Shown piece after piece: positions 4,122 to 41,299 of a stretch of 64,000 bases of DNA. The notes under the pieces were generated by a model, which ran no database searches, was not told the DNA's origin, and worked only from the letters and a program-made list of their open reading frames with translations. A program made the position numbers and the translations under genes. The stretch covers positions 3,552,001-3,616,000 of the forward strand of contig AP038806.1 in the NCBI GenBank assembly GCA_047150005.1, in the 5' to 3' direction. Source of the DNA: Nitrospira sp. GTDB lineage: Bacteria > Nitrospirota > Nitrospiria > Nitrospirales > Nitrospiraceae. The number at the start of each line of letters is the position of its first letter. The stretch's first letter is position 1.

Positions 4122-4147
4122 GTCGTTCGCATGCGTGAAGCGGTTCA
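4122..4147 (-). promoter_or_regulatory. Putative ECF promoter TGAACC-N16-CGAC upstream of the caspase
   Basis: Minus strand TGAACC-gcttcacgcatgcgaa-CGAC; -35 overlaps the anti-sigma stop codon. Confidence 0.7.
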
Positions 4148-4822
4148 CGGCCCAACGGCGTCGGCATGCAGGACGACGCGGTCTTGCCCCCGGAGCATGT
4201 TCAGGATCTGACGGGACGTTGCAGGATCCGCCGCCTTGACTTCGAGCACATAGGAGCCTCCGGCAGTGGGACCGTCGACGATACGCCCGTGGACTCGGTC
4301 GACGACCTCGCGGATTTGCGCCTCGGTCGCCTGGTCATGAAAACGAACGGTAAACCGCGCGGCGGGGCTGTCGATCGATCTGGTGCTCACCGGATCCCGA
4401 TCCACCGGCATCGTCACCCAGAGTAGCAACCCGAACTGCACGGCCAGCAGAACCGTCGCCATGGAAGGAACCCACGGAACATCGAAGAGCGAGCGGAACC
4501 AGCGATCGAGGGACGCGAGGCCGCTGCCTTCGCGATCGGCGTTGCGTGCGGAGAGGCGTGTTTCCGACGCCACGTTGGACAGCACGGTTTTGGCCAACGA
4601 CGGCCTCGGTTCCGGCTGGGCTGCGTACGCCTCGTGAAGAGTCCGCCGCAGGTCCGCCCATTCGCTCAGTTCTCTCCGGCAATCCAGACAGGATTCCAAA
4701 TGGCGGGCGACCAAACGACGCTCTTCTTCTCCCAACGTTTCGTTGGCGTACCAGGGGAGCAGGGTCGCTTCCGGATGGACTCCGGCCGGGATGTGTTCCG
4801 GCTCGTTCATACGCCCGTTCAT
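4145..4822 (-). CDS. Membrane anti-sigma factor, zf-HC2 (ZAS) type, with periplasmic C-terminal domain
   Basis: LLPWY...HLESCLDC (HxxxCxxC); one TM helix; overlaps sigma stop (ATGA). Confidence 0.88.
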   Translation of the reverse strand: MNGRMNEPEHIPAGVHPEATLLPWYANETLGEEERRLVARHLESCLDCRRELSEWADLRRTLHEAYAAQPEPRPSLAKTVLSNVASETRLSARNADREGSGLASLDRWFRSLFDVPWVPSMATVLLAVQFGLLLWVTMPVDRDPVSTRSIDSPAARFTVRFHDQATEAQIREVVDRVHGRIVDGPTAGGSYVLEVKAADPATSRQILNMLRGQDRVVLHADAVGP

Positions 4823-5406
4823 ACGATGGGTGCCTTCTGGTTCAGCCGATCCAGCGCTCGTTTGAGATGCTGCTTGGCGTAGAAGACTCGAGTCTTGACG
4901 GTGTTGGACGGGATACCCAACATCGTCGCGATCTCGTCGTAGGGCAGTTCCTCATAGAAGACCAGGCGCAAGACTTCCTGATGCTCGCGCGACAGCGCAG
5001 CCAGCGCCCGCTTCGTCAAAGCCTCGACTTGTTGTCGGTGGATCCCTTCCAGGGGACCGTCGCAGGTGTTCGGAAGTTCGGCGACCTCGTCGAGATCGAC
5101 TTCGCGCTGCCGGCGTCCGGTCCGTCGCAGGGCGTCCAGCGACTTGTGGCGCGCGATACCGAAGATCCAGGTGGAGAGGCGTGACGTACCGGAAAAGGTT
5201 CCGGCGCCCCGCCAGATGGCGATCATGGTTTCCCCGACCACGTCCTCGGCGACCGTCTGGTCGTTGACGAGGCTGTACACGTATTGGTACAGGCGCTTCT
5301 CATACAGATGGTAGAGACGTTCAAAGGCGGCTTGTTCGCCGGCTGCCACGGCACCAAGGAGGTCACTCTCCGAATCCTCACGGTCGTGAGTCGTGTCCAT
5401 GGCCAC
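4819..5406 (-). CDS. ECF RNA polymerase sigma-70 factor
   Basis: Region 2 (AEDVVGETMIAIW, STWIFGIARH) and region 4 (YDEIATMLGIPSNTVKTR). Confidence 0.95.
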   Translation of the reverse strand: MAMDTTHDREDSESDLLGAVAAGEQAAFERLYHLYEKRLYQYVYSLVNDQTVAEDVVGETMIAIWRGAGTFSGTSRLSTWIFGIARHKSLDALRRTGRRQREVDLDEVAELPNTCDGPLEGIHRQQVEALTKRALAALSREHQEVLRLVFYEELPYDEIATMLGIPSNTVKTRVFYAKQHLKRALDRLNQKAPIV

Positions 5407-5523
5407 CCAAGTTCAGTCTGCCGTCTGTATCGCCCGGGAGGCCTTTGCTGTAGCATATTTGCCTTGGCCCCTCAATAGGACAGCCTTTGATTGACCAGTC
5501 TTCCAGGGCGGTCTACAATGCGC

Positions 5524-5549
5524 TGAACCTTTTGCTGTATCGTCGCGAC
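5524..5549 (+). promoter_or_regulatory. Putative ECF promoter TGAACC-N16-CGAC
   Basis: TGAACC-ttttgctgtatcgtcg-CGAC ending 28 nt before GTG 5578. Confidence 0.7.
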
Positions 5550-5577: not shown

Positions 5578-7173
5578 GTGGTGAAACAATACTGGCAGGG
5601 CATGCGAGAGGCTGGAACGGGACGGGGAGTCGGACTTGCCCTGCTCGGACCGCTTGTCCTCAGCTCTTGTGCCGCCGCCCCGTTTCTGATTCCGATTGCC
5701 TTCGAATTTGCCAAGAATCTCTTCCAGACCGGCCTGCAGAACTACGGATCCAAGCATCGCGATAACCTGAGTAATCTGGTCAATCGGCTCTCCAGCCCCT
5801 ATATGCAGGGACTCCCTCCCATGGCGATGGGAGGACCGGGATTGCCCGGTCAACCGGGCCAACTCGGGCAGCCCGGCGTTGGAATGCCACCAGGCTTTCC
5901 AGGACAACCGGGAATGCCGCCACCTCAGTACCCGGGACAGGCAGCCTATCCGGGACAAATGGGAGGCTATGATCCAAACAGCGCGGGCATGACCTCCTCC
6001 GGTGCCGCCGCCTATCCCGGATCACCGACTAATCCCTATGGAGGCGCGCAGAGTCTTCCGGGTCAACCGGGAATGAATCCGTTCGATCCGAGCAATCCAT
6101 ATGGAACCGCCGCGGCGAATCCTTACGGGCAACAGACCAATCCGTACGGGACTGCTTCCCCCTATGGCCAGCAGATGAATCCATATGGGACGACGGGAGC
6201 GAATCCCTACGGCACACAGAATCCCTATGGTTCCCCGAATCCCTACGGACAGCCCACGAACCCCTACGGAACGGCGAATCCCTATGGAGCCCCTCCCGCT
6301 CAGATGCAACCGGGCTACGATCCGAACAATCCATATGGAGCAGGTGGAGCGATGCAGGGCTATGGCCAGATTCAACAAGGCTATGGCCAGGTCCAGCAAG
6401 GCTATGGCCAGGTTCAGCAAGGTTACGGACAAGCTCAGCCGGGCTACGGCCAAGTTCCGCAGGGATATGGTGCAACCTCAGCTTATGGAACGCAGCAGCA
6501 AGCCTACGCCAACTACGGAATGTCCGGCCAATCGTATGGAGGCCAGCCGTACGGAGCGGCCGGCATCTATCCTCGATCAGTGGACGGCGAACCGGTCGCC
6601 GTTGATGTGGCGCTGGTCAGACAGAAGCAGACGGCCGGCGGCAAAGAAGTCGTCTTGATGAACGACGGGGAAACCCTCAAGGACGGCGGAGCCAACAAGG
6701 AAGCAGGCGACCGCTTCAAGATCGTCGCGCGTACCAACTGCGATTGCTATCTCTACATCATTTCCATCGACGGATCCGGCTGGGCCGAAACGGTCTTCCC
6801 GGCCAAGGGCGCCGCGACAGCCAATCCCGTCAAGCAGGACCAGGAGTACGGCTTCCCCGAATCGACTTACTGGTACACCTTGGACCAGGTGAAGGGGATC
6901 GAAACGTTCTTTGTCGTCGCGTCACGGAACCGCCGAACAGACTTGGAAGAAAGCATGGAGCAACTGGCCGCGGAGGTTCGGCCGTCGACTCCGATCGTGG
7001 CGAAGGTCGAGGAACCTCCCATTATTCCGCGCGGCGTCGGTTCCGTCCAGACTCGCGGCATCGTGAAGATCCAGGACGACACCGGCACGAAGGTCCAGGT
7101 CACGCCGCTCTCCTACGCGGCGAACCCGCCTACCCAAGATGTGACGGTCACGCGGTGGTTCAAGCACGAATAG
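5578..7173 (+). CDS. Putative lipoprotein with Gly/Pro/Gln/Tyr low-complexity region and C-terminal DUF4384-like domain
   Basis: Lipobox-like LSSC; 11 NPYG repeats and QGYGQ heptads; GDRFKIV...[11 protein letters not shown]...[15 protein letters not shown]. Confidence 0.8.
6355..6470 (+). repeat. Imperfect 21-bp coding tandem repeat (QGYGQxQ)
   Basis: caaggctatggccagg-like units repeated about 5-6 times. Confidence 0.75.
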
Positions 7174-7182
7174 CAGGATAAT

Positions 7183-8102: not shown

Positions 8103-8663
8103 TCAGTTCCCAAAGAGGTTCGGACTTCCGGTCAACACCTGGCCGTTGCCGACGGCGCTTCCTACCGCGGCAAGCGGTTTGGTGCCGTCGTTGAGCCGCA
8201 TGGTGGCTCCTTTTGCACTCAGAGTGCCTTTCGCCTCGACGGTCATCCCAGCGGCCGTGTGAATCGTGGCGTTTCCGCCGCTCCTCAGGGCCATGGTCGC
8301 GCCGGATTCAATGTTCGTGTCCGTCCCGCTCCTTACGGCGATCGATCCGGCCGACTGGATCATCGTGCCGCCCGCGCTCACGAAGGACAACGCCGGCGCT
8401 TGAATGACGGTTCCATTCGGTGAGACGTGGACGACCGATTGGATCGCAGCCAGCTGCAGCTGTAATGACTGGATCTGCTGCTGAAGCGCGGCGAGCTGCT
8501 GCTCGACCGTCATGGCCGGAATGGAGGTTGTCGGCGCGCGAAAACCCGGCTGCTGAGGACTCGTCGGTCCGGGCACCGCCCGCTCGGTGACATCATCGGC
8601 CGCGACGATCCCGCAGGGCCCAAGTGTAAGCGTCAGCAGCATGACTCTACCCAGAATCTTCAT
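8103..8663 (-). CDS. Secreted spike-like protein: coiled coil, gp5/gpV-type beta-repeat and PAAR-like tip
   Basis: Signal peptide; DDVTERAV; heptad QQLAALQQQIQSLQLQL; about 8-residue beta repeats; C-terminal KPLAAVGS...GQVLTGSPNL. Confidence 0.6.
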   Translation of the reverse strand: MKILGRVMLLTLTLGPCGIVAADDVTERAVPGPTSPQQPGFRAPTTSIPAMTVEQQLAALQQQIQSLQLQLAAIQSVVHVSPNGTVIQAPALSFVSAGGTMIQSAGSIAVRSGTDTNIESGATMALRSGGNATIHTAAGMTVEAKGTLSAKGATMRLNDGTKPLAAVGSAVGNGQVLTGSPNLFGN

Positions 8664-8719
8664 GTGCTCCCCCTCGGCAAAGGTTTGAGTGACAGCCGAA
8701 CATGGGCCATGCCGAACGG

Positions 8720-9754
8720 TCACAGGATGCTCATGTTCATCGTTTCGCAATACATCTCCACACGAACCACGGTCCCCGCCTTGGCGTTCGCCGGCTCAAG
8801 GGCATACCGCACAATGCCCAATCCGCCAAGCTGGACTGACACATTGCCGGCCTTCGCACCTGCCTGATCGGTCCACGTCAAGTGCCCCGACATTTCTCCT
8901 ACCTGCATACCCTTTACAACCGTGTCATCGAACCACTTGTAAAAAGGACCGGCGTACGCTTCGGGTAATCTGATCACGACGGGTGAACAGTCGAGGACTC
9001 CAGGCTGCTGCAGGAACTTCTCCTGTCCGGCACGCGATGCCGCGACCGGCCGTTTGGCCACGATCGCATCAACGTTGATGATTCGTTTGCAGGCATCCTC
9101 GAATCCCTGAATGGTGAAGGCGAAATTGGAGCTGACGATTTTCGCCGACTTGGCTCCCGCCATCGAGAGCACGTTCTTTCCGCTCCCTCCGGAAAAACGG
9201 GTAGACTGCGGAGCGATTCGCAGGGACAGTGCCGCGGGAGCCTTCGCTCCTACCGGGTCACAGAGAGGGGTGCCGATCTCCGTGATGACGGCCCCCATGA
9301 ATTCGAGCCGCTTGACTTCCTTGTAGTTGAAGTCCGCGTACAATATGGCCCCGTTCCTGGGGGTTGGAATTTTCGAGAGGGTATCTCCAATCCAGCCGCT
9401 CAGGGGTTTGGTGATTTGGGAAAAGTCCACGTCCAGCACAATATCCTCGAACCTCGGTGGGCCCGGCCGCTTACGCTGGATCATATCCGGCCCGACACCT
9501 TCCGAGATGATGTCGGCAAACGGGTTGCCGCCCTCGACGCCGGACAGGAGACCGGCGAATTGCCCTTCCAGTTCGAGGCCAACCGTCCCGCTCGCATACG
9601 AGCCTTTCAAGGCTGCTTCAGCCGGACTTGTCGACTCGATAAGAAATTTCGGTAGGCCGAGCAACATCGCACCTCCGGCCGCAAGGCCGACTTTGGCGAA
9701 AAAGCTGCGTCGGGAGAGCACCCTGGTCTCATCGGCGCTGGAAGAGTCGTTCAT
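8720..9754 (-). CDS. Tat-signal protein with two tandem phage tail-tube (T4 gp19/Afp1-like) domains
   Basis: SRRSFF...AEA Tat signal; LELEGQFAGLLSGVEGG, KRPGPPRFEDIVL, RNGAILYADFNYKEVKRLEF; second degenerate copy. Confidence 0.65.
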   Translation of the reverse strand: MNDSSSADETRVLSRRSFFAKVGLAAGGAMLLGLPKFLIESTSPAEAALKGSYASGTVGLELEGQFAGLLSGVEGGNPFADIISEGVGPDMIQRKRPGPPRFEDIVLDVDFSQITKPLSGWIGDTLSKIPTPRNGAILYADFNYKEVKRLEFMGAVITEIGTPLCDPVGAKAPAALSLRIAPQSTRFSGGSGKNVLSMAGAKSAKIVSSNFAFTIQGFEDACKRIINVDAIVAKRPVAASRAGQEKFLQQPGVLDCSPVVIRLPEAYAGPFYKWFDDTVVKGMQVGEMSGHLTWTDQAGAKAGNVSVQLGGLGIVRYALEPANAKAGTVVRVEMYCETMNMSIL

Positions 9755-9795
9755 GAAGACTCCTTTCACAATAGGGGTAACGCATGGTCCATAGG

Positions 9796-11208
9796 TCACG
9801 GTCTGGGTTCCTCAGATGGATCGAACGGACTCGGTTGTTCGATCATCGGCTCATCCGTCTGCTCCCCTTCCACCCCTCGGCTCATGACGGCGGTGGTTCC
9901 GCTTCCAAGCACGCCTGACGAGATCGTGCCGCCGATCCGGCATGTAAACTCGCGGGACGCGCCCGGTGGGAATGTGCCGGAGAACTGAGCGAGGTTACCC
10001 GCAAAGGGAAGGGCCTGGGTTTGCGCGGCGCCGTTTGCAATTGTCGTCATGGTGAATCCGACAATCTGCGGCGGCCCAAATCTCCCGCTGGTCTGATTGG
10101 CATCGAGCTGGCAAATGATTCCTTGCGCCTGACCGCCATCACACATCGCGCCTTCTTCCACGCCCGCGACGTTGAGGGGGCCCCAATAGGGCGTGTTCGG
10201 GTGGCTGCAGCCCACCACGATCTTGCCCTTTGCCCCCCATCCGCTCCAGCGCACGCGCGTGTTGCCGGACAATGTGGCGTCCGTCTTGCCCATCGTTTGC
10301 AGAATCCAATCGCGGTAGACGAAAACATCGGTAAACACCGCCTCGCCGGTTGGGGTCATACAGTCTCCGACTGTGCCTTGCGAGGCGATCCCGCGTACGA
10401 CCGCGCGGCCGTTCTCGACCGTCACGAATCCCGAGCCGCTATCGCCCGGACAGAGCGAGGTGTTGCCGGCCGTGTTGGCCGGCACGAAAATCTTCGTGGG
10501 GGATGCGAGGGCCGAGATGGGCCCACGGAAGATAGCAGCCTGCCCAGGAGGAACCGGACCATCGTGCCTGATCGACGCCACAGTTCCCACTCTGCCTGCC
10601 TGGCGTGGCGTTCTCGGGAGTCCGACCGTCTGGAGCGCGAAGTTGACAGGAAACGGTGATGCCAGCTTGATCAGGGCGATGTCGTTCGCGTGATCATTCT
10701 GAGGGTTGTACTGGGGGTGCTTGAACGCGCCGCGGTTGGTCGCAGGCCCGACCGTTTGATCCGGCTGGCGCGACTCGGTGTACGCTCTGCCATACGAATC
10801 AGTTCGAGTATAGGTCACGCCGCTATGGGGATTGAAATCTAGACAATGGGCCGCGGTCAGGAACCATTGCGGATCGATGAGCACCCCGCCACAGCCGGCC
10901 ATCCGTCCGACCCAGGGATATTTGTAGTCGGGCTCGTTGATGCCGCCACCAACAACCGGCGCCGGTCCGGTCGGTCCGGCGGAAGGAGCCGGTGGCGCGG
11001 TCGGCGTCATCGTCGCACCTTGTTTCTGAAATACCCCCATGTCGCGCATCACGGCCCGTTCTTGGACAGCGTTGGGATCCCCGGCCGGTGTGGGTGAGGG
11101 CGCGGGATCACCCGTGCATCCGATAAAGAAGCTGCCTATGGCCATGACGAGGAACAGCGAGACCGCCGCACGCGGGGTTCGATACTGACGGCCATTGAGA
11201 GAGCTCAT
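9796..11208 (-). CDS. S1 (chymotrypsin-fold) serine protease, predicted lipoprotein
   Basis: FIGC lipobox; TAAHC / DIAL / GDSGSG triad; VQERAV and SRGVEGE motifs. Confidence 0.88.
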   Translation of the reverse strand: MSSLNGRQYRTPRAAVSLFLVMAIGSFFIGCTGDPAPSPTPAGDPNAVQERAVMRDMGVFQKQGATMTPTAPPAPSAGPTGPAPVVGGGINEPDYKYPWVGRMAGCGGVLIDPQWFLTAAHCLDFNPHSGVTYTRTDSYGRAYTESRQPDQTVGPATNRGAFKHPQYNPQNDHANDIALIKLASPFPVNFALQTVGLPRTPRQAGRVGTVASIRHDGPVPPGQAAIFRGPISALASPTKIFVPANTAGNTSLCPGDSGSGFVTVENGRAVVRGIASQGTVGDCMTPTGEAVFTDVFVYRDWILQTMGKTDATLSGNTRVRWSGWGAKGKIVVGCSHPNTPYWGPLNVAGVEEGAMCDGGQAQGIICQLDANQTSGRFGPPQIVGFTMTTIANGAAQTQALPFAGNLAQFSGTFPPGASREFTCRIGGTISSGVLGSGTTAVMSRGVEGEQTDEPMIEQPSPFDPSEEPRP

Positions 11209-11372
11209 GATGGACCTCCATTCGTCTTAGGATGCTCTTGGCACACGGGCGGCGGGAAGAATGTACGGAGTCATCCCCCCGTCATGGTTCCGGCCTCTTT
11301 GATTCGGCGCGTCCCCACAGGTCGGCCGGATGCGACACCTGGGCGCAGTCTCTGAAACTCCTCATCCTCCGC

Positions 11373-12434
11373 TCAGAATTGGTCGAACGGCATCAGCGCC
11401 TTGATGATCGTGTAGGTAATCCGCGCTACGCACGAATTGCCGCCAAATGCGCCCCGAAGTCCGGGCGGCCCTGTCGCCTCCTTCTTCAAGAAAAAGTCAT
11501 ACTTGGTCGTCGGTCCCGGCACCAAGGGTATGGCTGACGGTCCAAATCGAGTAGGGCTGTATTGAGGGAGCTGATAAAAGAAAGGATCGCCCTCTCTAAA
11601 TTGCACAGACGGCTCCATGAGCTTGTCCCGTGCAGCGACCTCCTTGCGGGTCCATGAGAATTGTGTGATCCCTCTTGCCTCGTCACCACCGAGTTTGAAC
11701 GTTTGCTCATGGAACTGACCGTCAGGCGAATACCACAAGAAGCCGATGTCACTTTTCCCAACGAGATCGCACTTGGAGGCCATGACGAATCTCAAATCCG
11801 TGACAAACACGTCATAGAGCGGGGTGATCGTGACCTGCTTGTTGAACCCGGTACCTTGCCCATTGGGGACCAACTCGCGCACAGTAATCTGGACGTTCAT
11901 CGGCCGAGGCTGCCCATTCCCTTCAGCATCGCGGTACGAGAGGGTCAGGCCAGTGGCGGGACTATAGGTTCGTTTCAGAATCTGCGATTTGAGCGGAGAG
12001 CTATAGAAGACTTCGACCTCGACGGGCACCGTCACCGGGAGATTGGGAGGAACGCGAAGATTGACGGAGATGCTCTTCGACGTCACCTTGATCGCGTTGC
12101 GGATGGCGGTGAGACTTGGGGTTGGGGCCGGAATAGGCAACAATTTGGCGCCGGGCGCCACAGCCCCCGGCAGGATCCCTCGTTCCTGAATGTCGGTGGC
12201 CTCGGACGCCGGCGCGGACTCGTCGGGCATCGTGGGAGCCATGGCGGGGGATGCCGGTTCTTGCTCGGTTGTCGCGGTCCCGGCCTCACCCCCGACTGCC
12301 CGTTCCTGTACATCTTTTGGATCTTGGTCCGGCGCATGATAAGGCTCGATTGGATCCCGAAACTGGGCGAAGGTTGGAGCCAGGAGAAAGGACCATCCCA
12401 TTGCGAGAAGGAGCACATGGCGGAGTGTTATCAT
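11373..12434 (-). CDS. Secreted hypothetical protein (paralogue family P1)
   Basis: Signal peptide; DVQERAV and DIQERGI; mature part nearly identical to 17994..18989. Confidence 0.8.
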   Translation of the reverse strand: MITLRHVLLLAMGWSFLLAPTFAQFRDPIEPYHAPDQDPKDVQERAVGGEAGTATTEQEPASPAMAPTMPDESAPASEATDIQERGILPGAVAPGAKLLPIPAPTPSLTAIRNAIKVTSKSISVNLRVPPNLPVTVPVEVEVFYSSPLKSQILKRTYSPATGLTLSYRDAEGNGQPRPMNVQITVRELVPNGQGTGFNKQVTITPLYDVFVTDLRFVMASKCDLVGKSDIGFLWYSPDGQFHEQTFKLGGDEARGITQFSWTRKEVAARDKLMEPSVQFREGDPFFYQLPQYSPTRFGPSAIPLVPGPTTKYDFFLKKEATGPPGLRGAFGGNSCVARITYTIIKALMPFDQF

Positions 12435-12504
12435 ATGACCTCTCCCATTCACATGACCATAACCGGTCTGCTGCTTCGGCACTCACTCTCGGTTGCGCCA
12501 TAGG

Positions 12505-15500
12505 CTACCAGGCGGGAGCACAGTTGACGCGTGCGTTTGTCTGGTGTTTTGCCACTGTCACACAACTGGCCCATCCCAACGTCTTCCAATCATCATAGTC
12601 GTTGTACGTGAGGTCGGCCATGCCATCGGCGTGAGGGCGAAAGCGAACATGGTTTTCAAGCGCAGGCTTGTGAATAGAGTATGTCATCGCCGCGCGAAGC
12701 GCTGTCTCACTTGGCGTCACCAGCGACATGCCGTAGACGAACGACCACACATTGTCAAAATACGAATTGAGGCCAATGCGCAACTTTCCGTCAGAGGCGA
12801 CATATGACATGGCCATGCGAGTTGCGTTGGTCGGCGGATAGCTCGGCGGAGGCGGTTGGTACTCCAGGAACAGTATGTAAAAGCGCCCTGTAGAAAGGAG
12901 CGTCGTGCCGGACGGGGGCGCCATTTCGGAGGGAAGCGGCGTCAGCACATCCAGCGGGAGCTTGCGCTGAACCGCGCGTTCCTGAATCTCCTCAGGGGGC
13001 GTCCCTTTCTGGGACGCTTGGTCCTGCTCGCTCAGCGAGGTGGGAGGAGCGGGAAGATCGGTTGCTGGCGGTATGTGCGGATCCCGCGGTTCTTGGATCT
13101 CCCCAGACGGCGGCTGGGCATGTTCCTCCTGCAACACCCCCCGGGATCGCGTAGACGTCGAAGCGGTTGCTCCCGACGTCGTCAGGATGCCTCCATCCCC
13201 TGGGCCCGGCGTCCATGCCATGACCGGCCGGCCCACGGACGAAGGCAGCGTGTCGTAGGGAATGGGGATTCGCCCCCATCCGGGGCCGGGCAATTGAGAA
13301 GCATAGAGCTGAATGCGGGCTTGTGGGTCAGTGAATGCACCGATCAGGTGCTCTTGTCCGGCCACGATGCCGAGAGGGAGGTAGACATATGCCAGCGCGG
13401 GTGACGTATTTGGATGCACCACGACCGACTGCCCTCCGACCGTCACGACCTGCTCAGCCGACCAACCAGCTCCTGTGAAACTGCGCACTCGGACCACGTT
13501 GTCGGTCCCTTTATACCCCAACGCCAAGCTGGCTAGGTTGCGGGAGTTGGCCAACGAAGGTTCGCCGGCGGCCGGCGACGATCCGTCGACGGTGATGACC
13601 GCGTTCCAGACATTCAATCCGGCACTCACGGTCACCCATGTATAAAACATTGTCCCGTCGGGGCGAATACCGACCAGAATGATCATCTCAACGCCCTTCA
13701 CCTTGACGGTCTTCGCATCGATCGCGGAGATCGGTCCGATATCACGAGTTCCCGGCTGCACAAATGTTGGCACGGGGCAACTGTCGACGTTGGGCGAGCA
13801 GTTCCAGGCCGACGTATAGCTGTAGGCGAGACGTCCATTCAGGTCGACGGCAAACATCCAGATCTGATTGTTGAAGCGCACGACCGCAGGACTGCGCTGG
13901 CTCTGGATTCCGGAATCTTGCTCACCTTGACGGGTAAACTCGCACATTCCGCCTGGCTGGTAATTGGCGTACGCGCGCACCCGAACGTTCGCGGGAGAAA
14001 AGATGCCGTCTCGGTTCCAATCGACGTGCCCTGTGAGCGGGTCAACCTTGTAACCAAAGATGTTGACGAGCACATCACGGAGGGGCTGATCGGAGGGGTT
14101 GAAGACATCGCTCTCCAGGAGGGAATGGTTATTCAACTGCAGGGAGCTACGCCGCCCATCGGAAAACTGCAAGGGGCCCGCGTAGCTCATGAGACTCAGG
14201 TAATTGGGCTTGCAATTGGGCTCGTTCAGGCCGAATGGGCCGTTGTGATTTATCCCCATGGTGTGGCCGAATTCGTGGGACGCAACGAAGACTGAATTCA
14301 TATTGAATCCGCAGGCGATACTACCTCCGGAGCAGGCTCCGCCACCGCTGGTATAGCCCATGACGTAGTGGAACACACCATGCCGCGATCGATCCATTTG
14401 CACCGACCAGACCTCCTCCGGTCTTTGTGGACCGGTCGGTAATGCGTCCACTGGATTGTAGCCACCCCAGTCGCCGTAGATGGTGGCATCCTCTGGTCGC
14501 TCAGGCGGCACCCCGGTATCGAGGTGGAGACGGATACCGGGAAGACCGTCTGGATTGGCGCTGCTCGCGGCATGCGCCGCGCGCAGCGCAGGGTCGGTGG
14601 TCGCGGCATCTGCATACACGGCCGCCATCTGGCGGGCCGCCTCCGGGGGCATGCGGCTCGAGACCCCCTGCTGGTTCTCAGCGAGGTTGAGACGGCGGAA
14701 GTCCACTTCGATAAATACATCCTTGTGGCGAGGGTTTGCCCCCCACCCAGGCAAATCCAGGAACACGGGCTTGTTCTGACTGTTGGTAGCCCGTTTTCCC
14801 AGCACCTCCCAGCCGTCCAGCAGTCCATCGCCATCGGTGTCTCGCGGATCGGCGATGGCATTACAATTGACGCCAGCGACGGAGCTCGTCTTCGATGCGC
14901 AAGTTCCGAGAGCTGCCTCGAGCTGGTCCCCGAGCCCATCCCCATCGGTGTCGTTCGCAACGTCGTTAGGAGGCAGTGACTGGCCTTGATGATCCCGTAC
15001 GACGGGTCCTCCACCACAGGAGGCCGGTGGCGCGCTCGCAGGATGGGGCGGTAATAGCGGAGCGACCACGGCAGTGCTATTGATAGGTGTTGTTCCGCTT
15101 GCTCGTTGGCGTTCCCAATGGCCCGCGACAAACTGGCCGTTTTGCACACTCGCTCGTGCCCAGACAAATCCCTGAGGATCAGGACTGCCAAACACGCAGA
15201 TGTACGAGAGCTTATCGCCAAAATTCACCTGTGAGAGATCGGGGCGGTCTTCCAATACATCTACTGAGAGACCATAGCCCCCTCCTGCATCGACGTGTTC
15301 GTAGAGGACCGCCACCAGACCTGGAGCGACTCGTATTGAGGACGCAACATCATTGAGCTCAGAGAATATATATCCACCAACACCGAGTGTTTGGCTCCGA
15401 CCCGCAAAATTGGGGTGCTCATAGATCACAACGCTTGGGGGTGCGACCACCGCAGCCGCACGTTGCACGGCCTGCGTGGGCGCGAGCTGCACGGCTTGCA

Positions 15501-15951: not shown

Positions 15952-16060
15952 GTTCACCCCCCCACGAGTCACGAAGTCCTGATTGGACCTCTTTGTCACT
16001 GATCCTCCGTGAAATGCTACAAGCCAGCCATGATCATCCATCGTTCATGAAAACTTTCAA

Positions 16061-17311: not shown

Positions 17312-17345
17312 CCCTCCTCCCGATACACCTGCACAGCGTGATGCG

Positions 17346-30079: not shown

Positions 30080-30123
30080 GACTACACCTCCTGCTGATGC
30101 AGGGTCCTTCTCGCTTCTCGTGA

Positions 30124-30149
30124 GTCGTCATTCGGCGTAACTTGGTTCA
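30124..30149 (-). promoter_or_regulatory. Putative ECF promoter TGAACC-N16-CGAC
   Basis: Plus strand gtcg-tcattcggcgtaactt-ggttca, upstream of 30079. Confidence 0.7.
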
Positions 30150-30182
30150 AACCCACCAAAAGACTGATTTTCCACGTACAGG

Positions 30183-30208
30183 TGAACCTCTGCCCCCCTG
30201 CTCTCGAC
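30183..30208 (+). promoter_or_regulatory. Putative ECF promoter TGAACC-N16-CGAC (divergent)
   Basis: TGAACC-tctgcccccctgctct-CGAC upstream of the 27-aa ORF. Confidence 0.68.
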
Positions 30209-30255
30209 ACACCGGACGAGAACCGTTCAACGTCGCTCATAAGGAGGATCTCCCC

Positions 30256-30339
30256 ATGTGGATCATCGCTGTTATGCTGGTCTCCCTCGTCGTCCTGGCC
30301 ATCGCCACCATGCTGCTTGAGCGGAGAGAAGCGGAATAA
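30256..30339 (+). CDS. 27-aa single-TM small protein
   Basis: TAAGGAGG RBS; MWIIAVMLVSLVVLAIATMLLERREAE; own promoter motif. Confidence 0.65.
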   Translation: MWIIAVMLVSLVVLAIATMLLERREAE

Positions 30340-30366
30340 ATCATTGGAAAAGGGCTCCACATTCTT

Positions 30367-31821
30367 CTATGGCGAAGTGACGGTGCAGGGCACCGGCACC
30401 CACCGCGGCCCAGTGTCGCTGGGATTAGGCCGACAGGGTGGAGAGGAAGCGGCTCTCGCACCGACTGACGCAGCAAGGACCGCCGCTTCAATGGTCTTGT
30501 CGGGGAGTGCAGATATCTTGTTGATGCTGCGAGGCGTTACTCCGGACGGAACACCGATCGTCTCAAATCGCCTCCCGTCCGCCGTCAGGAAGAGCAGGTG
30601 CAGATCGTCCGACGGACCTGGTATGACCACCGCAATGGTGCGGGAGATCGGAATCTGGTGGGTGTCCCGGTTCGCATTGAAGAGCACGGTCCGCTGCCCT
30701 TCTTGCGCGACTCCGAGTTGGAGATCCAGGATGGTCCCGATTTCATAAGCGCCGACTTTGAGTTCCACAGCCTCTCCCTTCGCATCCGTGGCGTGAAACG
30801 GCTGGTCGAGCTTAAGCGCAACCGATTCGGCAATTTCAGGCGTTCCTTCCTCGATGACGGCAGGATCAGACGTTTCGGAAGTCTGCCCGTCCTTTTCCTC
30901 CACGCCTCGCGCAAAAAGCCCTGATTGGGCGAGCGCGCCCATCGAGGCGCCGGGCTTCGGAAATTCCGCCGACGGTTGGGTCTCCATACCTTGTGCAGCC
31001 TGGGCTTGCGCGGCCTGAGCCTGAACAGCCCGGGATTGAGTAGCGACCTGGGGCTGTTGCGGTTGGACCGTCATGGCCTGCGTCGGCGGGGATTGCTTGA
31101 CGATCGGAGACTGTTGCGGCTGAGTGGTCATGCTTTGGATGCGCTGCTGGTTGCTCATCCGTGCCGATCCCGGCTGGTTTGCCGCCTGGTATTGTTTGAT
31201 GAGTTGCTGCTTCAGCTTTGCCGACAGGGAGTCCTTTGTTATTGGGAAAGGCTTGTCTTCGATGACGCGAGGAAACGCTTCGCGTACATCGCTCGGGACA
31301 TACTCGCCAAGGCGTTGACAAGTCCCGCCTTGAAGCCAGGGGTCTTTGGTGCAACGTGCCGTCCAATAGACGACAATTCTTCTCTCTCCCGATCCTTTCA
31401 TTTGTCGGTTTGGGAAGAATTGCTCGTAGTTCTCAATGAAAAGCGTTTCCACTGCATTTGGACGGTCTTGGCGTGTCTCTGTCGGGTTCCATCGTCCTTC
31501 GAAGAAGAGGTGGATGACACCGTCGTGGTACTGACCTTCTTGCAATCCCACAGGACATTGCTCTTCAAAAGGATAGGAGGCGAAGCCGGGAGGGTTGGAG
31601 GCAAACCTCGCCGGTTTTTTCATCACCGGCCCAGGGCACCAGAGGAAGACCTTGTCGTCCGTACAATCACGGCAGAAGAGGACCGACCCCATGGCTTCCA
31701 CAGTGGCAGGGGTTGCAGAGAGACCGAACAAGAGTGCCACGACAACCAGCCAGGCAATCCGTGGTTCACGATACTGCTTGGCTTGAGTGACTACTGGTGT
31801 CACGAACCGTCTGTGATTCAT
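30367..31821 (-). CDS. Secreted protein: domain B, Gln-rich linker and C-terminal domain A
   Basis: YWTARCTKDPWL; FARGVEEK; domain A ending SGVTPRSI. Confidence 0.75.
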   Translation of the reverse strand: MNHRRFVTPVVTQAKQYREPRIAWLVVVALLFGLSATPATVEAMGSVLFCRDCTDDKVFLWCPGPVMKKPARFASNPPGFASYPFEEQCPVGLQEGQYHDGVIHLFFEGRWNPTETRQDRPNAVETLFIENYEQFFPNRQMKGSGERRIVVYWTARCTKDPWLQGGTCQRLGEYVPSDVREAFPRVIEDKPFPITKDSLSAKLKQQLIKQYQAANQPGSARMSNQQRIQSMTTQPQQSPIVKQSPPTQAMTVQPQQPQVATQSRAVQAQAAQAQAAQGMETQPSAEFPKPGASMGALAQSGLFARGVEEKDGQTSETSDPAVIEEGTPEIAESVALKLDQPFHATDAKGEAVELKVGAYEIGTILDLQLGVAQEGQRTVLFNANRDTHQIPISRTIAVVIPGPSDDLHLLFLTADGRRFETIGVPSGVTPRSINKISALPDKTIEAAVLAASVGARAASSPPCRPNPSDTGPRWVPVPCTVTSP

Positions 31822-31931
31822 GGCGGTCTCCTGATTCCCCTGTCCTCCCATGAGGTCATGACTGCTTCCACTAAATACACGCGGCGTTGTCACGCCGATC
31901 GCTTCTCGTTCCCTCGCCCTGAGACCGCTCC

Positions 31932-32906
31932 TTATGGTCCGAACATCTTCGGCGCCTTCTGGATCGCTTTCTTCGGAGCAGTAACCACGAACTCCACCCA
32001 GTCGCTCCACCCGGTCGCCGTCGGCGAAGACATCTGAGCGCTTAATCGCCAGGCGCCCGGACTCGTTGCACCGCCGGGAGGCGTGCCAGAGCCAAAGCCT
32101 GTATAGCCTGTCGGCGATTCTGCCGGGACGGCGCCCACAGGCAGCGTGGTATGAGCTACCCAGTTGCCGGAGGGATCCTTCCGTTCGAGCCGCACCGTGT
32201 ACATACGATTGGTATTCACAGGCCTACCATCGAGTCCGACTTGAGTGTCCACCCATCCCTTCGGTGGCGCAAGCTTGATGGGGACGTGGGTTCCATTGAT
32301 GAATAGCGCGTTGGGCGTCGGTGACAGGATGATCGGTGCAATGCGAGCCGGCCTTGGTTGCACCCCTTGCGTGATTCGCTGATTCCGTCGCTGGAGAGCC
32401 GCCGCCGCTTCAGCCTTCAGGGCCGCCTCACGTTTTGCAAGGAGCGGCCGGCGATCATACTGAAGTCCCGGGGTCAGGGGACTTTGGCGCTGACTCACAA
32501 TGGTTGTGAGGATTTCATTGTAGAAAAACACCATCTGGCCTTGTGAGGAGGTTTGCACCCCACCACAGGTGGTGCTGCTCAGCCAGGGATCACTCCTACA
32601 CGTCATCACGCTCTGGATTTCGCCGCTGGCAGGATTGTGCACTTCGTCGATCAATACAATACGCTCCTGCACGCGACCGTCTTTTGAACGGTAGGCACCT
32701 TCCGCGGTCCAGCGATATGAAACGAAGTTCCTCACTCGGCAAGTACCGGAAAGTTTGTAGCTCGAACGGGTCGCGCTGATGTCGTCGACGATGGACACCA
32801 ACAGACAAGCGTTAACAAAGTCGTCTTCTTTCGTATATTCTATGGCTCGTGTCTCCTCCTCAGGCCACAATAGAACCACGAGCAGTACGGACCAGAACAC
32901 ATTCAT
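31932..32906 (-). CDS. Secreted protein: divergent domain B plus domain C
   Basis: MTCRSDPWLSSTTC; GAWRLSAQ...GWSDWVEF; ATGA overlap with lnt. Confidence 0.72.
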   Translation of the reverse strand: MNVFWSVLLVVLLWPEEETRAIEYTKEDDFVNACLLVSIVDDISATRSSYKLSGTCRVRNFVSYRWTAEGAYRSKDGRVQERIVLIDEVHNPASGEIQSVMTCRSDPWLSSTTCGGVQTSSQGQMVFFYNEILTTIVSQRQSPLTPGLQYDRRPLLAKREAALKAEAAAALQRRNQRITQGVQPRPARIAPIILSPTPNALFINGTHVPIKLAPPKGWVDTQVGLDGRPVNTNRMYTVRLERKDPSGNWVAHTTLPVGAVPAESPTGYTGFGSGTPPGGATSPGAWRLSAQMSSPTATGWSDWVEFVVTAPKKAIQKAPKMFGP

Positions 32907-34594
32907 GAGATACACTCCTTTGAGCGGGTATGTTTCATCGTTGCTGCCGAGACGTCGCCGAATCGACGATCTGGAGGGGCCGACGGTTTCGGCGGAATGG
33001 TCCTCCTACGCCCTACGGACCGAGCATGACAGATCATTCCCCCTGCCAAGCTCAATAGACCGACGAGCATGGCGCTATCGCCGGTGATCGTGTAAAGGGT
33101 GGGCCCGGCGCCAACCGTGACCTCACCTGTGACCACCCCCTCGTGGAACAGCCCTGGCACACCCGTGACCACCTTTCCATAGGAGTCGATAATCTGTGAC
33201 GGACCCGTGTTCGACGCGATCACAATCGGCACTCGATTCTCTACGGCGCGCATGACCGACATGAGGTTGTGCTGGAGCGGGGCCGCGCTTCGGCCGAACC
33301 AGACGTCGTTCGTCAGCTGCACCAGTACATTGGCCCCCTCGCGAACCGATTCTCGCGCAAGGGAAGCAAAAAGATTTTCCCAGCAGATCAGTGCACCGGC
33401 AGAGAGGTCGGTCGTCACGTTGAAGAGTTGCGAGTGATCGCCGGGTGTCATTTCTGTCACACGCGGCGCGAGCCATTCAGGCCATGGGATGATCTTCGAC
33501 TGAGGCAAGTACTCGGCGAAAGGAACAAGAACTCGTTTGCGATAGGGCTGACCCGATGGTTGACCGGGCTTGAGTAGATGAGCGCTATTAAATATGCGGC
33601 GACCGATCGTGATTTCCGAGTCTCCCGTCGCGAACTTCTCTACTTGGGCTGCGCCGACGATCAACGACGTCTCGATCTCGTCGACCAGGCGCTGCAATCG
33701 AGCGGTCAGGATTGAGTCTGATCGTAGCTCGCCTGGGATTGCGCTTTCCGGCCAGACAATGAGGGACGGACGATCAGCCGCGACCCGCCGTGTGAGTTCT
33801 TCCAGGCGTCCTAAGCTGGCTTCCCGCCCGTCTTCTGTTGTTCGGTCTGCAAGTTGAATGTTCGGTTGGATGGCGACGACTGAGACGTTCGCTCCTTGAG
33901 GCTGGTTGAACAATACCGTGGCGCCCCACAGATGCGTCAGCACGAGGGCGATGATGGCTATTACCGCCGATCGTCGATCGATGCCGAGGATCAACCCGGC
34001 AAGTGCAACATTGCCCAGCGCGACAAAGAAGGTCACGGCATGTTCACCGCCGAGACTTGCGATCTGAAGGACGGCGAGGTTGCTGTGTTGGGTTTGCGCG
34101 AGGGTCCCCCAGGGAAGGGCCAGAAAGCCGGCATGCGCACGCAGATAATCGGCGACGACCCAGAGGATCGGACCGGTGAGAATGAGAGGCGCATGGCGGC
34201 GGGCTACCCACGCCACGGCTGCGCACCATAGAGTGGGGTAGATCGCCACGTAGAGCGCCAGCACGATCGCATGGCGCAAATCGAAAGCGGGAACTTCAAA
34301 TAGCCAGCCATAAATACCGAAACTCGACACAATCCCAAACAGGAGGCCAAGGCCTGCGGCTCTGAGCGGCGCAAGGTCGTGGCACGCCACCATGAGGGGA
34401 ACCAACGCCACCCAGCCGAGCCAACCGACGTCCGGACTGGGCAACGAGCAGATCAAGAGCCCCGCGGACAACAAGGAGGACACAATTCTCGTGAAGGGAC
34501 ATTCGAGGGCCTGTTGACGGCGAAACGATCGCGGAGCAACTGCGAAGCTGCCTGATAACGAAAGGACAGGGCTTGTGTACGAGTCCTTGTTCAT
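32903..34594 (-). CDS. lnt: Apolipoprotein N-acyltransferase
   Basis: Multi-TM N-terminus; nitrilase triad WPES, YRKRVLVPFAE, ICWE; TNDVWFG; RAVEN. Confidence 0.93.
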   Translation of the reverse strand: MNKDSYTSPVLSLSGSFAVAPRSFRRQQALECPFTRIVSSLLSAGLLICSLPSPDVGWLGWVALVPLMVACHDLAPLRAAGLGLLFGIVSSFGIYGWLFEVPAFDLRHAIVLALYVAIYPTLWCAAVAWVARRHAPLILTGPILWVVADYLRAHAGFLALPWGTLAQTQHSNLAVLQIASLGGEHAVTFFVALGNVALAGLILGIDRRSAVIAIIALVLTHLWGATVLFNQPQGANVSVVAIQPNIQLADRTTEDGREASLGRLEELTRRVAADRPSLIVWPESAIPGELRSDSILTARLQRLVDEIETSLIVGAAQVEKFATGDSEITIGRRIFNSAHLLKPGQPSGQPYRKRVLVPFAEYLPQSKIIPWPEWLAPRVTEMTPGDHSQLFNVTTDLSAGALICWENLFASLARESVREGANVLVQLTNDVWFGRSAAPLQHNLMSVMRAVENRVPIVIASNTGPSQIIDSYGKVVTGVPGLFHEGVVTGEVTVGAGPTLYTITGDSAMLVGLLSLAGGMICHARSVGRRRTIPPKPSAPPDRRFGDVSAATMKHTRSKECIS

Positions 34595-34605
34595 CTTGCT
34601 CCCAG

Positions 34606-35568
34606 TTAGGCATCCTCCTGCACACTGACTTCCATAAACTCCGCCGTCCCTCGTTCCAGGTACCAATAGAAGTTGTGCGAGCCTGGTGCAAGGTGAACGT
34701 AACTCCAGTGGTTGTAGACATTGGCGCCCGATCCATAATCGAACTGCTTGACGACGATGCCGCCTTTTACAAGAGAAGCCTTCGCATTGCTCATGAAGCC
34801 CACAACATTCACGTAGTACATGCCTTCCCGAGGTACCGTGACATTGAACACCAACCATGATTTGCCCTGCGGACTTTCAATATGAATTCCCGCATCCAGC
34901 ACCGGCCTGAAAGGATCAAACTGCCAAATGCCCCTAAAGGTGAGACCGGAATTCTTGGGGTCTTTGGCAGTGAAGACCGCTTTGAAGGGTTCCGCAGCTT
35001 GTGCCTCACCTGGCCGGAAGAGGCTGGCCAGGGAGAACGCCGACTGTCCGTCTGAGGGGAGTTGCGAGAGGTGTAGTCCCCGCCGCTTGGCTTCCTCAAT
35101 CATCTCGCGGCCGCCCGGCTCGGCAAGCAGAAAACCTCGCAATTGCTGAATCGTAGGTGTGGGGCGTGGCGGCATATTTGGAGGCATCATCGCTCTTCCG
35201 GGCAGTTGCATTTCCGGTGGAGCAGCCTGTGCAGGCGGCAGGGCATTCGTCCGGCTGAACAAATTCAATTTGCCCATTCGTCCTTCGAACGTATTGGGAA
35301 ACGTCTGAAGGGGGGAGGGCGTGGCGTTCAATCGTTGCGTCTGTATCAATTCCGGTGGCAACGCCGTTTCGGCCGGAAATTTCGGCAGGAGAAGCGCACG
35401 AGGAGCGACTGGAGAGGCAACAGGGCTCGTCGGGGAAGGTTTCCCTGCTTGCACCACCGGCTGGATCAGTCTGTCGTTTGGGCCGGCCTTGACCTCGTGC
35501 GAAACCGTGAGCCATATCGTCGTCGCCCCGCCAAGAGCGATGGTCAGCATCAGAAGTGAGCGCCTCAT
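34606..35568 (-). CDS. Secreted hypothetical protein (family P3)
   Basis: Signal ending VKA; Pro-rich; C-terminal GMYYVNV...LAPGSHNFYW. Confidence 0.72.
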   Translation of the reverse strand: MRRSLLMLTIALGGATTIWLTVSHEVKAGPNDRLIQPVVQAGKPSPTSPVASPVAPRALLLPKFPAETALPPELIQTQRLNATPSPLQTFPNTFEGRMGKLNLFSRTNALPPAQAAPPEMQLPGRAMMPPNMPPRPTPTIQQLRGFLLAEPGGREMIEEAKRRGLHLSQLPSDGQSAFSLASLFRPGEAQAAEPFKAVFTAKDPKNSGLTFRGIWQFDPFRPVLDAGIHIESPQGKSWLVFNVTVPREGMYYVNVVGFMSNAKASLVKGGIVVKQFDYGSGANVYNHWSYVHLAPGSHNFYWYLERGTAEFMEVSVQEDA

Positions 35569-35631
35569 GGTGTCCCCCCCCGCATTGGGCCTGTTGCTCA
35601 TCCTAATTCAAACGGCCGGTGTCCATGACTC

Positions 35632-36216
35632 TCACCCTTCGATCTTGGCTTTGAGAATATGGGTTTCCAGGAATTCAACAGAGCCGCTCTCCAGGGTCCA
35701 GTAAAAGAAATGAACACCAGCCCTGAGCTCTACCAGCGCCGGATACAGGTGCATTCCCTGCGGCCGGTTCCTGTAATCCCAACTGGCTACATTCACCGGC
35801 GTCGGCGCGGCAGACGTTAAGCTGGCTCGGGCGCCCGGCCCGCTGATCACGCAGTTCACGATGTACCATCCATCTTTCGGAGCTTTGACCATGATCAGGA
35901 CGCGCGCCGGCCCGTTGTCGAGCGAATTGACGATGGTGGGGCTCGTCATCATCACCTTATTGTTGCCGGACATCGTGACGCCGATGAGAAAAATTGAGCT
36001 GCCTTGGAGGGAACGGTTCTCTCGCGGCGTCAGCGTTTCCGGCAGGGACTCGTCAGCAGGCCCGATCGGTCCGGACCGACCCACGGCCAAGGTGTCCGGA
36101 GGGGAGAGCCATTTCAAAGGCGATCCATTAGGCGGAAGGCTCAGCCAGAGGCATCCCGCCATAATGGGGACAAGAACTACCGGAGACAGAACGGCACGCG
36201 TTCGTCTTCGATGCAT
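35632..36216 (-). CDS. Exported hypothetical protein (family P3)
   Basis: GGAGG RBS; C-terminal GWYIVNC...LRAGVHFFYW. Confidence 0.7.
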   Translation of the reverse strand: MHRRRTRAVLSPVVLVPIMAGCLWLSLPPNGSPLKWLSPPDTLAVGRSGPIGPADESLPETLTPRENRSLQGSSIFLIGVTMSGNNKVMMTSPTIVNSLDNGPARVLIMVKAPKDGWYIVNCVISGPGARASLTSAAPTPVNVASWDYRNRPQGMHLYPALVELRAGVHFFYWTLESGSVEFLETHILKAKIEG

Positions 36217-36261: not shown

Positions 36262-36286
36262 GTCGATGCATCTCCCTGAAGGTTCA
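36262..36286 (-). promoter_or_regulatory. Putative ECF promoter variant TGAACC-N15-CGAC
   Basis: Plus strand gtcg-atgcatctccctgaa-ggttca, upstream of 36216. Confidence 0.55.
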
Positions 36287-41000: not shown

Positions 41001-41224
41001 GCCGAGGCGACGAGTCGGCCGTCAGGTGAGAACGCGACAGCGAGCACTTCGTTGCTGTGTCCGTTCAGTAGGCGGGTCGCCTGTTCGAGAGCCCGCGAAA
41101 CGAGAGGAAAACCCACGAGCCCAGAGATGAGCAGCCCGGCGAAGAAATATCGGCACATGATGCGGATGTTGCCCCGTCCGCTCACGGCGCTCTCCTCGGC
41201 CCAGCACACTGCAGAAACGGCCAT
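38072..41224 (-). CDS. WD40 (7 blades), Ig-like, SH3b and caspase-family (C14) protease; probably exported (alternative start 41158)
   Basis: 7 GH..V..AFSPDG-type repeats; GELGEWYRVQ...GWV SH3b; WAVVIGISHY, YYAGHG and ISDSCYSG. Confidence 0.9.
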   Translation of the reverse strand: MAVSAVCWAEESAVSGRGNIRIMCRYFFAGLLISGLVGFPLVSRALEQATRLLNGHSNEVLAVAFSPDGRLVASAGTDQTIRLWEPDTGRDLRVLRGHLGAVHALAFSPDGTLLVSGSADTSIRVWDVASGRELRAMTSTFGAVRAVAFAADGKTIASGGNDGSFRLWDTANGKELKSVRGQFGVVFALRFSPDGKTLATGSSDMQVHLWDLATGRQRQALSGHAGAVHGLAFHPNSQWLASASADGSIRLWDLESGQEHLTLTGHKGEVHTIVFSSDGRALVSAGADGTVRVWDVASGNERHTLGGHKGPVWSLAMSPDGALVASGGRDRIVRLQPPTPPTLSAQLSEKMQRRGNEIGTPPSPPPLAQADLAIRPMEAKAGSEVTLTLAVRNAGKGPLYRFQARIKSDDPALDGHLFYLGKIDGGQSAEDVVTIKVPADRPDGSIPVRVEFEEYNGFVPENLNAVLALKGLPRPRFAYTLQIIDDGSGSSVGNGDGRLQRGEAVDLLVTVKNVGAVQAQNTTVDVSIPPNPSLKLSKSQVDLGLLKPDEAKHATVNLFVGRDIRDEQIPIRLFIKERGLHTTLDDTMKVAVDHKTAPQIVVTNKVVAVSAQSATIHSGAGAEASVIASAPKDQGLAVTGELGEWYRVQISPKEVGWVAKADVRESQEPVKGDMPVPTISGTPVVKLYQNAPPVIALASPSDGTEVGVERIHLAGAAASEKGVARVEIRLNGQLVTQKDSRGVTVKSEGSDIQTNIEFSERLALREGKNQIVVTAVDRDNLSATRTLNVTRVADRGKIWAVVIGISHYKGVQPLRYADKDALAFHDYLANHIGIPKEQTTLLLNDQATLMNLKRTLGTDLRRKAGEKDTVIVYYAGHGAPEADSSAGDDDGLEKYIVPFDADPRDLYTTGLPMREIETIFQRLTPERIIFISDSCYSGATAGRTFATASRRAVVSENFLSRLSKGKGRIVLSASKASEVSEEREDLGHGVFTYYLLEGLRGKADADKDGIVTVDEVYGYVSKKVPEVTGQNQHPVKKGEVEGQLILGQVR

Positions 41225-41273
41225 CGACGAAATGACGTCGAGCGCTCTTCCCCGACAAGCCTTGTCTCCCTTG

Positions 41274-41299
41274 GTCGATTGCAGGCTCTGATCGGTTCA
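41274..41299 (-). promoter_or_regulatory. Putative ECF promoter TGAACC-N16-CGAC at the head of the cluster
   Basis: Minus strand TGAACC-gatcagagcctgcaat-CGAC. Confidence 0.7.

Follow-up and report, generated by a model that had tools for sequence, protein, structure and literature searches.

An ECF33-like sigma factor with a metacaspase partner and a predicted local regulon of secreted proteins in Nitrospira

Introduction

Sigma factors of the extracytoplasmic function (ECF) type that belong to group ECF33 have been described as using a -35 element of the form TGAACCTTT and a -10 element with a conserved AC, and as being encoded beside a zinc-finger, one-helix anti-sigma factor at position +1, with a subtilase at +2 in two subgroups; their taxonomic range was given as 100% Proteobacteria (PMC7826278). 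Here we analyze a locus of this kind in Nitrospira sp., within a 64,000-nucleotide (nt) stretch of contig AP038806.1 (assembly GCA_047150005.1, positions 3,552,001 to 3,616,000). This stretch is hereafter called the window; coordinates are counted from its first letter, with strands as (+) or (-). It encodes an ECF33-like sigma factor (4819..5400, -; ATG at 5400), a zf-HC2 anti-sigma factor (4145..4822, -) and a secreted metacaspase (1788..4037, -). An earlier note on this DNA had drawn attention to the signature TGAACC-N16-CGAC in front of seven transcription units, had read it as a bipartite ECF-type promoter and had assigned it to the local sigma factor.

Promoter Pecf33_375 (Rhodius 2013) includes the sequence CGAACC-N16-CGAC-CA-AC. 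It was induced 141-fold by ECF33_375 and 210-fold by ECF33_423, and less than 3-fold with the other 76 sigma columns shown (PMC3817407). Studied members of the group are EcfQ, which is responsive to reactive oxygen, and Blr3042 of B. japonicum, which is accompanied by an anti-sigma factor and whose deletion is reported to have given no phenotype (PMC3420878). TGAACC is the -35 element of groups ECF17 and ECF111 as well, and ECF43 members are characterized by a Ser/Thr kinase at +1 and by replacement of the DAED motif with Ser/Thr (PMC7826278; PMC13147305 for ECF43). Metacaspases, for their part, prefer to cut after Arg or Lys (PMC4357240), and a survey listed many of them in Nitrospirae, some probably exported (PMC3501461).

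The Nitrospira locus shares with ECF33 the TGAACC(TTT) -35 and the AC-bearing -10 elements, as well as the zinc-finger, single-membrane-helix anti-sigma factor at +1. As in the ECF33_375/AS33_375/Pecf33_375 set, a secreted protease gene directly follows the anti-sigma gene. It differs in its host, since the group was described from Proteobacteria alone, and in having a metacaspase-DUF4384 gene at +2 where subgroups s2 and s3 have a subtilase. ECF33 genes are usually self-regulated from an upstream promoter, whereas here there is no exact upstream copy and a degenerate one overlaps the sigma ATG. A further difference is the large local set of secreted targets with a common Arg motif. The promoter type is already known, because the GAACC-N16-CGAC-nn-AC layout is shared with Pecf33_375; what is new is an ECF33-like module with a metacaspase partner and motif-marked cargo. 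We found no literature report of an ECF33-like sigma factor with a caspase, or of the motif in Nitrospira, in a search of mostly non-subscription literature.

Results

Seven exact TGAACC-N16-CGAC matches occur in the window against 0.18 expected (standard deviation 0.41), and none of 100 shuffles reached that number. Six of them stand at the coordinates and on the strands given in the earlier note, and its variant with a 15-nt spacer is likewise in the sequence. The site at 4122..4147(-) lies at the anti-sigma stop codon, ahead of the metacaspase gene; an exact N15 or N16 copy occupies the same position in 10 of 12 relatives. The site at 5524..5549(+) is divergent from the sigma gene, precedes a DUF4384 gene and is retained in 12/12 relatives. 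In both, position is conserved and spacer sequence is variable. Of the others, 25484..25509(-) heads the minus-strand run from 25440 to 8103, the N15 variant (36262..36286, -) precedes 35632-36216, and 41274..41299(-) precedes a WD40-caspase gene and has orthologous sites in relatives G001 and G026. The sites at 30124..30149(-), ahead of 28886-30079, and 30183..30208(+), ahead of 30256-30339, form a divergent pair that has an orthologous counterpart in G026.

The sites had been placed about 30 to 85 nt before a start codon. Likely starts lie 28 to 84 nt from CGAC (84 nt for site 4122, 28 or 52 for 5524, 43-46 for 25484, 44 for 30124, 47 for 30183 and 45 for 36262), and the start after 41274 is uncertain (49, 88 or 115 nt). 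The seventh exact match, unreported earlier (17597..17622, +), is antisense within the open reading frame (ORF) 17346-17801 and lacks the nnAC extension described below. G001 and G006 have it in the corresponding position, and it is probably set by the coding sequence.

A genome-wide pattern scan (4.07 Mb, 59% guanine plus cytosine, GC) gave no excess of the 16-nt spacer, with 23 matches against 5-29 for 13 other spacers (10-23). Since 7 of these 23 sit in the window, where other spacers yield 0 or 1, and the total is unremarkable, the excess is local. Of 32 genomes from the same genus, 11 have an orthologue of the sigma factor, as does 1 of 28 other genomes searched. The 734 kb surrounding 12 orthologues hold 54 N16 and 16 N15 matches, other spacers giving 0-8, and the tetramer that most often follows TGAACC-N16 is CGAC (54, with no other above 9). 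A weight matrix was built from 50 sites outside long ORFs, out of 70 found in relatives. The extended consensus is TGAACC(TTT)-N16/15-CGACnnAC, with T at the three positions following TGAACC in 26, 31 and 25 of the 50 training sites, and A at the third and C at the fourth position past CGAC in 46 and 37. When this matrix was run over the Nitrospira genome itself, the seven reported sites took ranks 1 (site 5524) and 3-8, a ranking that is not independent because the training set includes orthologous sites. Ranks 2 and 9 went to two intergenic sites beyond the window, G000:C1:890581-890606(-) and 892266-892290(-).

The motif follows the family of the local sigma factor across phyla. Anti-sigma homologue loci were fetched for the best 80 of 411. 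Among these, the 14 Nitrospirota loci (248 kb) hold 26 N16 matches, 18 loci mostly from Pseudomonadota (229 kb) hold 37, with a copy in 17 of the 18, and the 6 basal loci (89 kb) hold 13; a sister clade has only 2 in its 42 loci (655 kb). The motif accompanies homologous sigma/anti-sigma pairs of Nitrospirota, Pseudomonadota, Methylomirabilota and Acidobacteriota. In the sister clade, TGAACC is retained upstream of the sigma gene in combination with a different -10 element. The position aligned to RpoE Asn84, which is described as setting -12/-13 specificity (PMC7776599), is Asp in the local sigma factor, mostly Lys in the sister clade and Ser in ECF33_375; because of that Ser, the link to this position is not confined to Asp.

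Three accounts of the sites can be compared on these data. That the motif is chance or an after-the-fact pattern would accord with the lack of a genome-wide N16 excess and with the one intragenic match. It is hardly credible given the spacer-specific enrichment in 12 relatives and other phyla, conserved positions around variable spacers and a tested promoter of identical layout. The sites could also be genuine ECF promoters read by another sigma factor, such as an ECF gene that precedes the window by about 14 kb, or the ECF-like gene of low GC content at 50238-50801. The genome encodes about ten ECF-like sigmas, TGAACC also serves ECF17 and ECF111, and the local sigma gene has no exact copy upstream. 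Yet a profile of the homologous sigmas scores the local one at 269 bits and the runner-up at 142, and the motif keeps company with this family in unrelated phyla. Moreover, the extended motif occurs 3-12 times in each of 12 genomes with the sigma factor, as against 0-3 copies in each of 17 genomes in which no such sigma factor was found; many of these 17 are incomplete, and related genomes do not count as independent. We therefore regard another reader as improbable. The earlier reading of the sites as bipartite ECF promoters is supported by the layout of Pecf33_375, and their assignment to the local sigma factor by the tracking of its family and the genome counts. Judged from sequence comparison, we put the probability that they are real promoters read by the sigma factor of 4819-5400 at about 0.88. 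Together they likely delimit a local regulon for secreted proteins that spans about 40 kb, to which a second locus near genome position 875-896 kb is added. This part of the work amounts to a sound regulon prediction and not to a discovery.

The sigma factor has the Pfam region 2 and region 4 (r4_2) domains, and its best NCBIfam match, PRK12515, is under the cut-off of that family. By hand count it is identical to ECF33_375 at 34 of 84 positions in region 2 (about 40%) and 24 of 44 in region 4 (55%). We file it as ECF33-like and not as a formal member because the comparison was made by eye against two library members instead of group profiles. The anti-sigma factor combines a zinc finger, whose HxxxCxxC is invariant in the orthologue alignment, a single hydrophobic helix at about 118-137, predicted to span the membrane, a disordered linker (S-T-R148-S-I) and a ferredoxin-like outer domain (153-225). 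By eye it resembles AS33_375/blr3043. Pro-subtilisin (Z 7.8, root-mean-square deviation (rmsd) 2.5, 65 aligned) and Lrp/AsnC (Z 8.7, rmsd 3.0, 79 aligned) tie as likenesses of the outer domain, and Foldseek returned no match for the anti-sigma model at E <= 0.001.

Two other groups were considered and set aside. Kinase control of the ECF43/EcfK type is ruled out, as the +1 gene encodes an anti-sigma factor, no kinase is present and the sigma factor retains VAED. Membership of ECF17 is ruled out by the -10 element, CGT there and, from the tetramer counts above, predominantly CGAC here. The M. tuberculosis ECF17 pair SigL-RslA does share the TGAACC -35 element and Asp at the RpoE Asn84 position, and in the structure model the N-terminus of the anti-sigma factor gives an alignment with RslA (Z 6.3, rmsd 4.2, 60 aligned); outer domain and gene context, like the -10, are different.

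The earlier note saw no copy of the motif upstream of the sigma gene. This stands for exact copies, but matrix scan and alignment reveal a degenerate sense copy, TGAACT-N16-CGAC-TC-AC (5390..5415, -), that overlaps the sigma ATG. It is present in 17 of 20 orthologous starts (2 of the 17 strings being duplicates), including 12/12 same-genus genomes with our own counted, at a constant 9 nt from TGAAC[TCGA] to ATG. CGAC is maintained over sigma codon 3, which is always NCG while the residue varies among Thr, Ser, Pro and Ala. A transcript from this copy would miss the sigma start and cover the anti-sigma gene. Among the 18 loci mostly from Pseudomonadota, 11 have a copy placed 36-107 nt ahead of the anti-sigma ORF, where it would have a similar outcome. 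We give about even odds to the proposal that the weak ATG copy yields anti-sigma factor without extra sigma factor and so damps the loop; it could act by blocking instead. The sigma gene itself may be driven by a conserved, weak candidate housekeeping promoter, TTGAGG-17-TACAGC (5447..5475, -), which was read by eye and for which the promoter scan gave no match. On the other strand, a sigma70-like promoter, TTGACC-17-TACAAT (5491..5519, +; 10/12 matches, conserved in the alignment), lies just upstream of the 5524 site.

The metacaspase belongs to family C14 and carries a C-terminal DUF4384 domain. His117, Cys174, Asp61 and Asp172 are invariant in 14/14 orthologues, and Arg-small-aliphatic sites are conserved at 181, 188, 210, 521, 661 and 680. 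Its closest solved relatives are metacaspases, and it could be aligned to yeast Mca1; motif spacing suggests that Asp61/Asp172 correspond to Asp95/Asp211 of TbMCA2. It thus shares with C14 metacaspases and orthocaspases the His-Cys dyad, the acidic S1 residues and an Asp-rich loop, and departs from the known ones in its signal peptide, its DUF4384 fusion, its predicted ECF sigma control and the encoding of candidate substrates within the same predicted regulon.

One candidate substrate is the anti-sigma factor. Arg148 is invariant in 12 orthologues. It is part of [TSPE]-R-[SAG]-[IVL], shortly after the membrane helix on its outer side, and falls in a low-confidence stretch of the model before the ferredoxin-like domain. 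We surveyed this linker in 162 homologous loci (80 GTDB, 80 metagenome, 2 plasmid), of which 106 have a subtilase. R-[SGA]-[IVL] is found in 30 of 31 loci with a neighboring caspase, the exception being frameshifted, against 1/106 with a subtilase and 4/25 with neither in the available DNA. Subtilase-linked linkers read mostly [YF]-x-T-L-[SG] or P-L-G. In a number of subtilase genes (L069, L073, L078, L083, L126 and others) residues ahead of the mature enzyme, such as FHTLA, YRLQG or FEGLQ, loosely resemble the linker motif of the same locus, which would fit a shared specificity. The anti-sigma orthologue at G007:C8:320438-321082 is apparently frameshifted just past the membrane helix, through either assembly error or real truncation.

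Other candidates lie among the cargo. The motif [VI][QTEK][ES]R[GA][VILM] occurs 11 times on the minus strand of the island, and the plus strand has none; the proteins concerned are nine secreted-looking ones and the WD40-caspase. Among called secreted-like proteins it marks 7/22 in the island, 3/11 at the second locus and 1/872 elsewhere, with the protein motifs having been defined from island proteins ahead of counting. The looser [ETPS]R[GAS][VI] was rejected as a marker for being common in the background (106/872); only the narrower form discriminates. Relatives' islands carry 0-9 narrow-motif copies per region, with none in G010.

Some 25 proteins, most of them secreted-looking and few assigned to a Pfam family, are encoded between the DUF4384 gene and the WD40-caspase; signal peptides were assigned by eye or by a hydropathy rule. 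The DUF4384 gene (5578..7173, +) encodes a probable lipoprotein with a Pro/Gly/Gln-rich linker and PR-SV, PR-GV and TR-GI motifs, and is present in 12/12 relatives. Most proteins of the run 8103..25440(-) are without a Pfam family. The run includes a tube-like protein (8720-9754, -), a trypsin-like protein (9796-11208, -) and a DsbA-like protein (24332-25099, -), and nine of its products have [VI][QT]ER-[GA][VIL] past an acidic N-terminal stretch or in a linker. Further secreted proteins follow at 25740..36216(-), several with PR-G[VI]-[DE] tails, together with an Lnt-like acyltransferase (ORF 32903-34858, -). The segment 36296..41224(-) comprises a FecR-domain protein (36296-36931, -), a beta-propeller protein (36988-38028, -) and the WD40-caspase (38072-41224, -). 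A PHROGs search with 13 island proteins returned 0 families. The terminator scan of 1.5-21.4 kb gave 12 candidates against 14.5 expected, both minus-strand ones lying within ORFs. The second locus, G000:C1:875747-896272, has three genes with an intact caspase domain and a caspase tail that is repeated as a short duplicate; it also encodes secreted proteins in which VESR-G/A and PR/TR-G motifs occur. Its promoter-like sites are those of matrix ranks 2 and 9 and a weaker one at 882268-882293(+).

Several cargo genes merit individual mention. The tube-like protein has a Tat-like signal, and the Atlas clusters nearest to it are marked by Phage_T4_gp19 (score 0.98, in 77% of members) and by tube/Hcp-like folds. 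A small repeat protein (8103-8663, -) adjoins it, and no sheath or baseplate gene was recognized nearby. A small Cys-rich, secreted-looking ORF with DVQER-GL (19082-19468, -) is outside the called gene set, and at 22977-23053 the end of the DsbA-like gene recurs as a 78-nt remnant (83%). Paralogous pairs are 11366-12110 and 17988-18713 (86%), and 26598-26908 and 27893-28194 (72%). The ORF 30256-30339(+), encoding 27 hydrophobic residues, has a ribosome site and its own ECF-type promoter and is also found in G026.

Discussion

To our knowledge, the natural substrates of bacterial caspase homologues and the proteases that make the first cut in most anti-sigma factors are poorly known. Observed here are the motif, its conservation, the gene content, the linker co-variation, the catalytic residues and the presence of RseP in the genome; the switch that we propose from them is inferred as to transcription, cleavage, signal and biological purpose. 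A housekeeping promoter would supply the sigma factor, which the membrane anti-sigma factor would retain until a cut after Arg148 in the exposed linker takes off the outer domain. RseP would then complete the breakdown, and the freed sigma factor would turn on the regulon. The co-regulated secreted metacaspase is, in our view, the most likely cutter, at odds slightly short of even. The Arg-[GAS]-[VIL] sites in the protease itself would serve self-processing and those in the secreted precursors maturation. Cutting of the anti-sigma factor by a regulon-encoded protease would give positive feedback, damped by the anti-sigma-only transcript from the ATG-overlapping promoter. Taken whole, a swap of subtilase for metacaspase with a matched linker cut site, one enzyme that both frees the sigma factor and matures at least a dozen precursors, and an anti-sigma-only promoter make up a scheme that we propose tentatively.

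A comparable arrangement is that of DdvS/DdvA in Myxococcus xanthus (PMC11506125). Both systems pair an ECF sigma factor with a zinc-binding membrane anti-sigma factor in a local island with several promoters, and for both a first cut at the linker by a caspase-fold protease, followed by RseP, is proposed. However, the protease of DdvA is a TPR-CHAT domain inside the anti-sigma factor, whereas here it would be a separate secreted C14 enzyme, and the M. xanthus island is of CBASS/CRISPR type instead of encoding secreted precursors.

Besides the training of the matrix on relatives and the definition of the protein motifs from the island, both mentioned above, several points weigh against this interpretation. 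Most cargo genes between 8.1 and 25.4 kb lack a strong individual site here, so a 17-kb transcript or other promoters would be needed; relatives have motif sites inside the matching block. The trypsin-like protease, the island WD40-caspase and the three second-locus caspases are alternative possible cutters. The 30 linkers represent one swap and not 30, because the caspase-linked loci form a single Nitrospirota-centred group, and the GTDB and metagenome locus sets overlap. In addition, the R. palustris ECF33 anti-sigma factor AS33_423 has R-S-L just ahead of its outer domain. A complex prediction for the metacaspase domain (36-300) and the anti-sigma outer part (138-225), which scored 0.00 against a mark of 0.32, counts for neither side.

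A rival account can be framed with the same promoters and the same sigma factor, in which the Arg motif is a docking or folding strand (for DUF4384, for example) or the site of another protease, and the anti-sigma factor is freed otherwise, for instance by zinc loss. The motif directly flanks the DUF4384 domain in both DUF4384 proteins, several further secreted proteases are predicted to be co-regulated, the co-variation of linker and protease is a single event, and the ECF33 member EcfQ answers to reactive oxygen (PMC3420878). Nevertheless, the linker motif shifts with the class of the neighboring protease, and in the metacaspase the motif stands in the inter-subunit linker, directly behind the catalytic Cys, with Arg181, Arg188 and Arg210 invariant. 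Clan CD enzymes undergo processing in that linker. As for another protease, the trypsin-like gene is near the sigma gene in 9 of 12 relatives, against 11 of 12 for the metacaspase, whose one miss is on a 9.7-kb contig. We consider this account a serious contender that falls somewhat short of even odds, and keep cleavage by the metacaspase as our working model.

The value of that model is that protease, anti-sigma site and many precursor sites are predicted jointly and are amenable to testing in E. coli or in vitro. If true, it would supply, ready to use, the natural substrates of a bacterial metacaspase that acts outside the cytoplasm, in signaling instead of cell death. The variation of the anti-sigma linker with the neighboring protease class predicts how ECF33-like sigma factors may be turned on. 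A large inducible secretion program would also have been described for Nitrospira-like nitrifiers.

Additional Observations

In several subtilase-type loci (L073, L074, L075, L078, L083, L092, L118 and L130), two genes upstream of the sigma gene, of about 610-760 and 380-410 amino acids, have the same promoter motif; neither gave a Pfam family at E <= 1e-6. Further along the window, two secreted-looking genes lie at 47115-48406(-), one with weak C39/C70 papain-like matches. A low-GC block (48987-51547, +; 46-48%) contains a metallophosphoesterase-like gene, a divergent ECF-like sigma gene and an unknown gene. Two opposite copies of an IS3-like element (52337-53523, -, and 56458-57644, +) bracket a gene for an outer-membrane protein.

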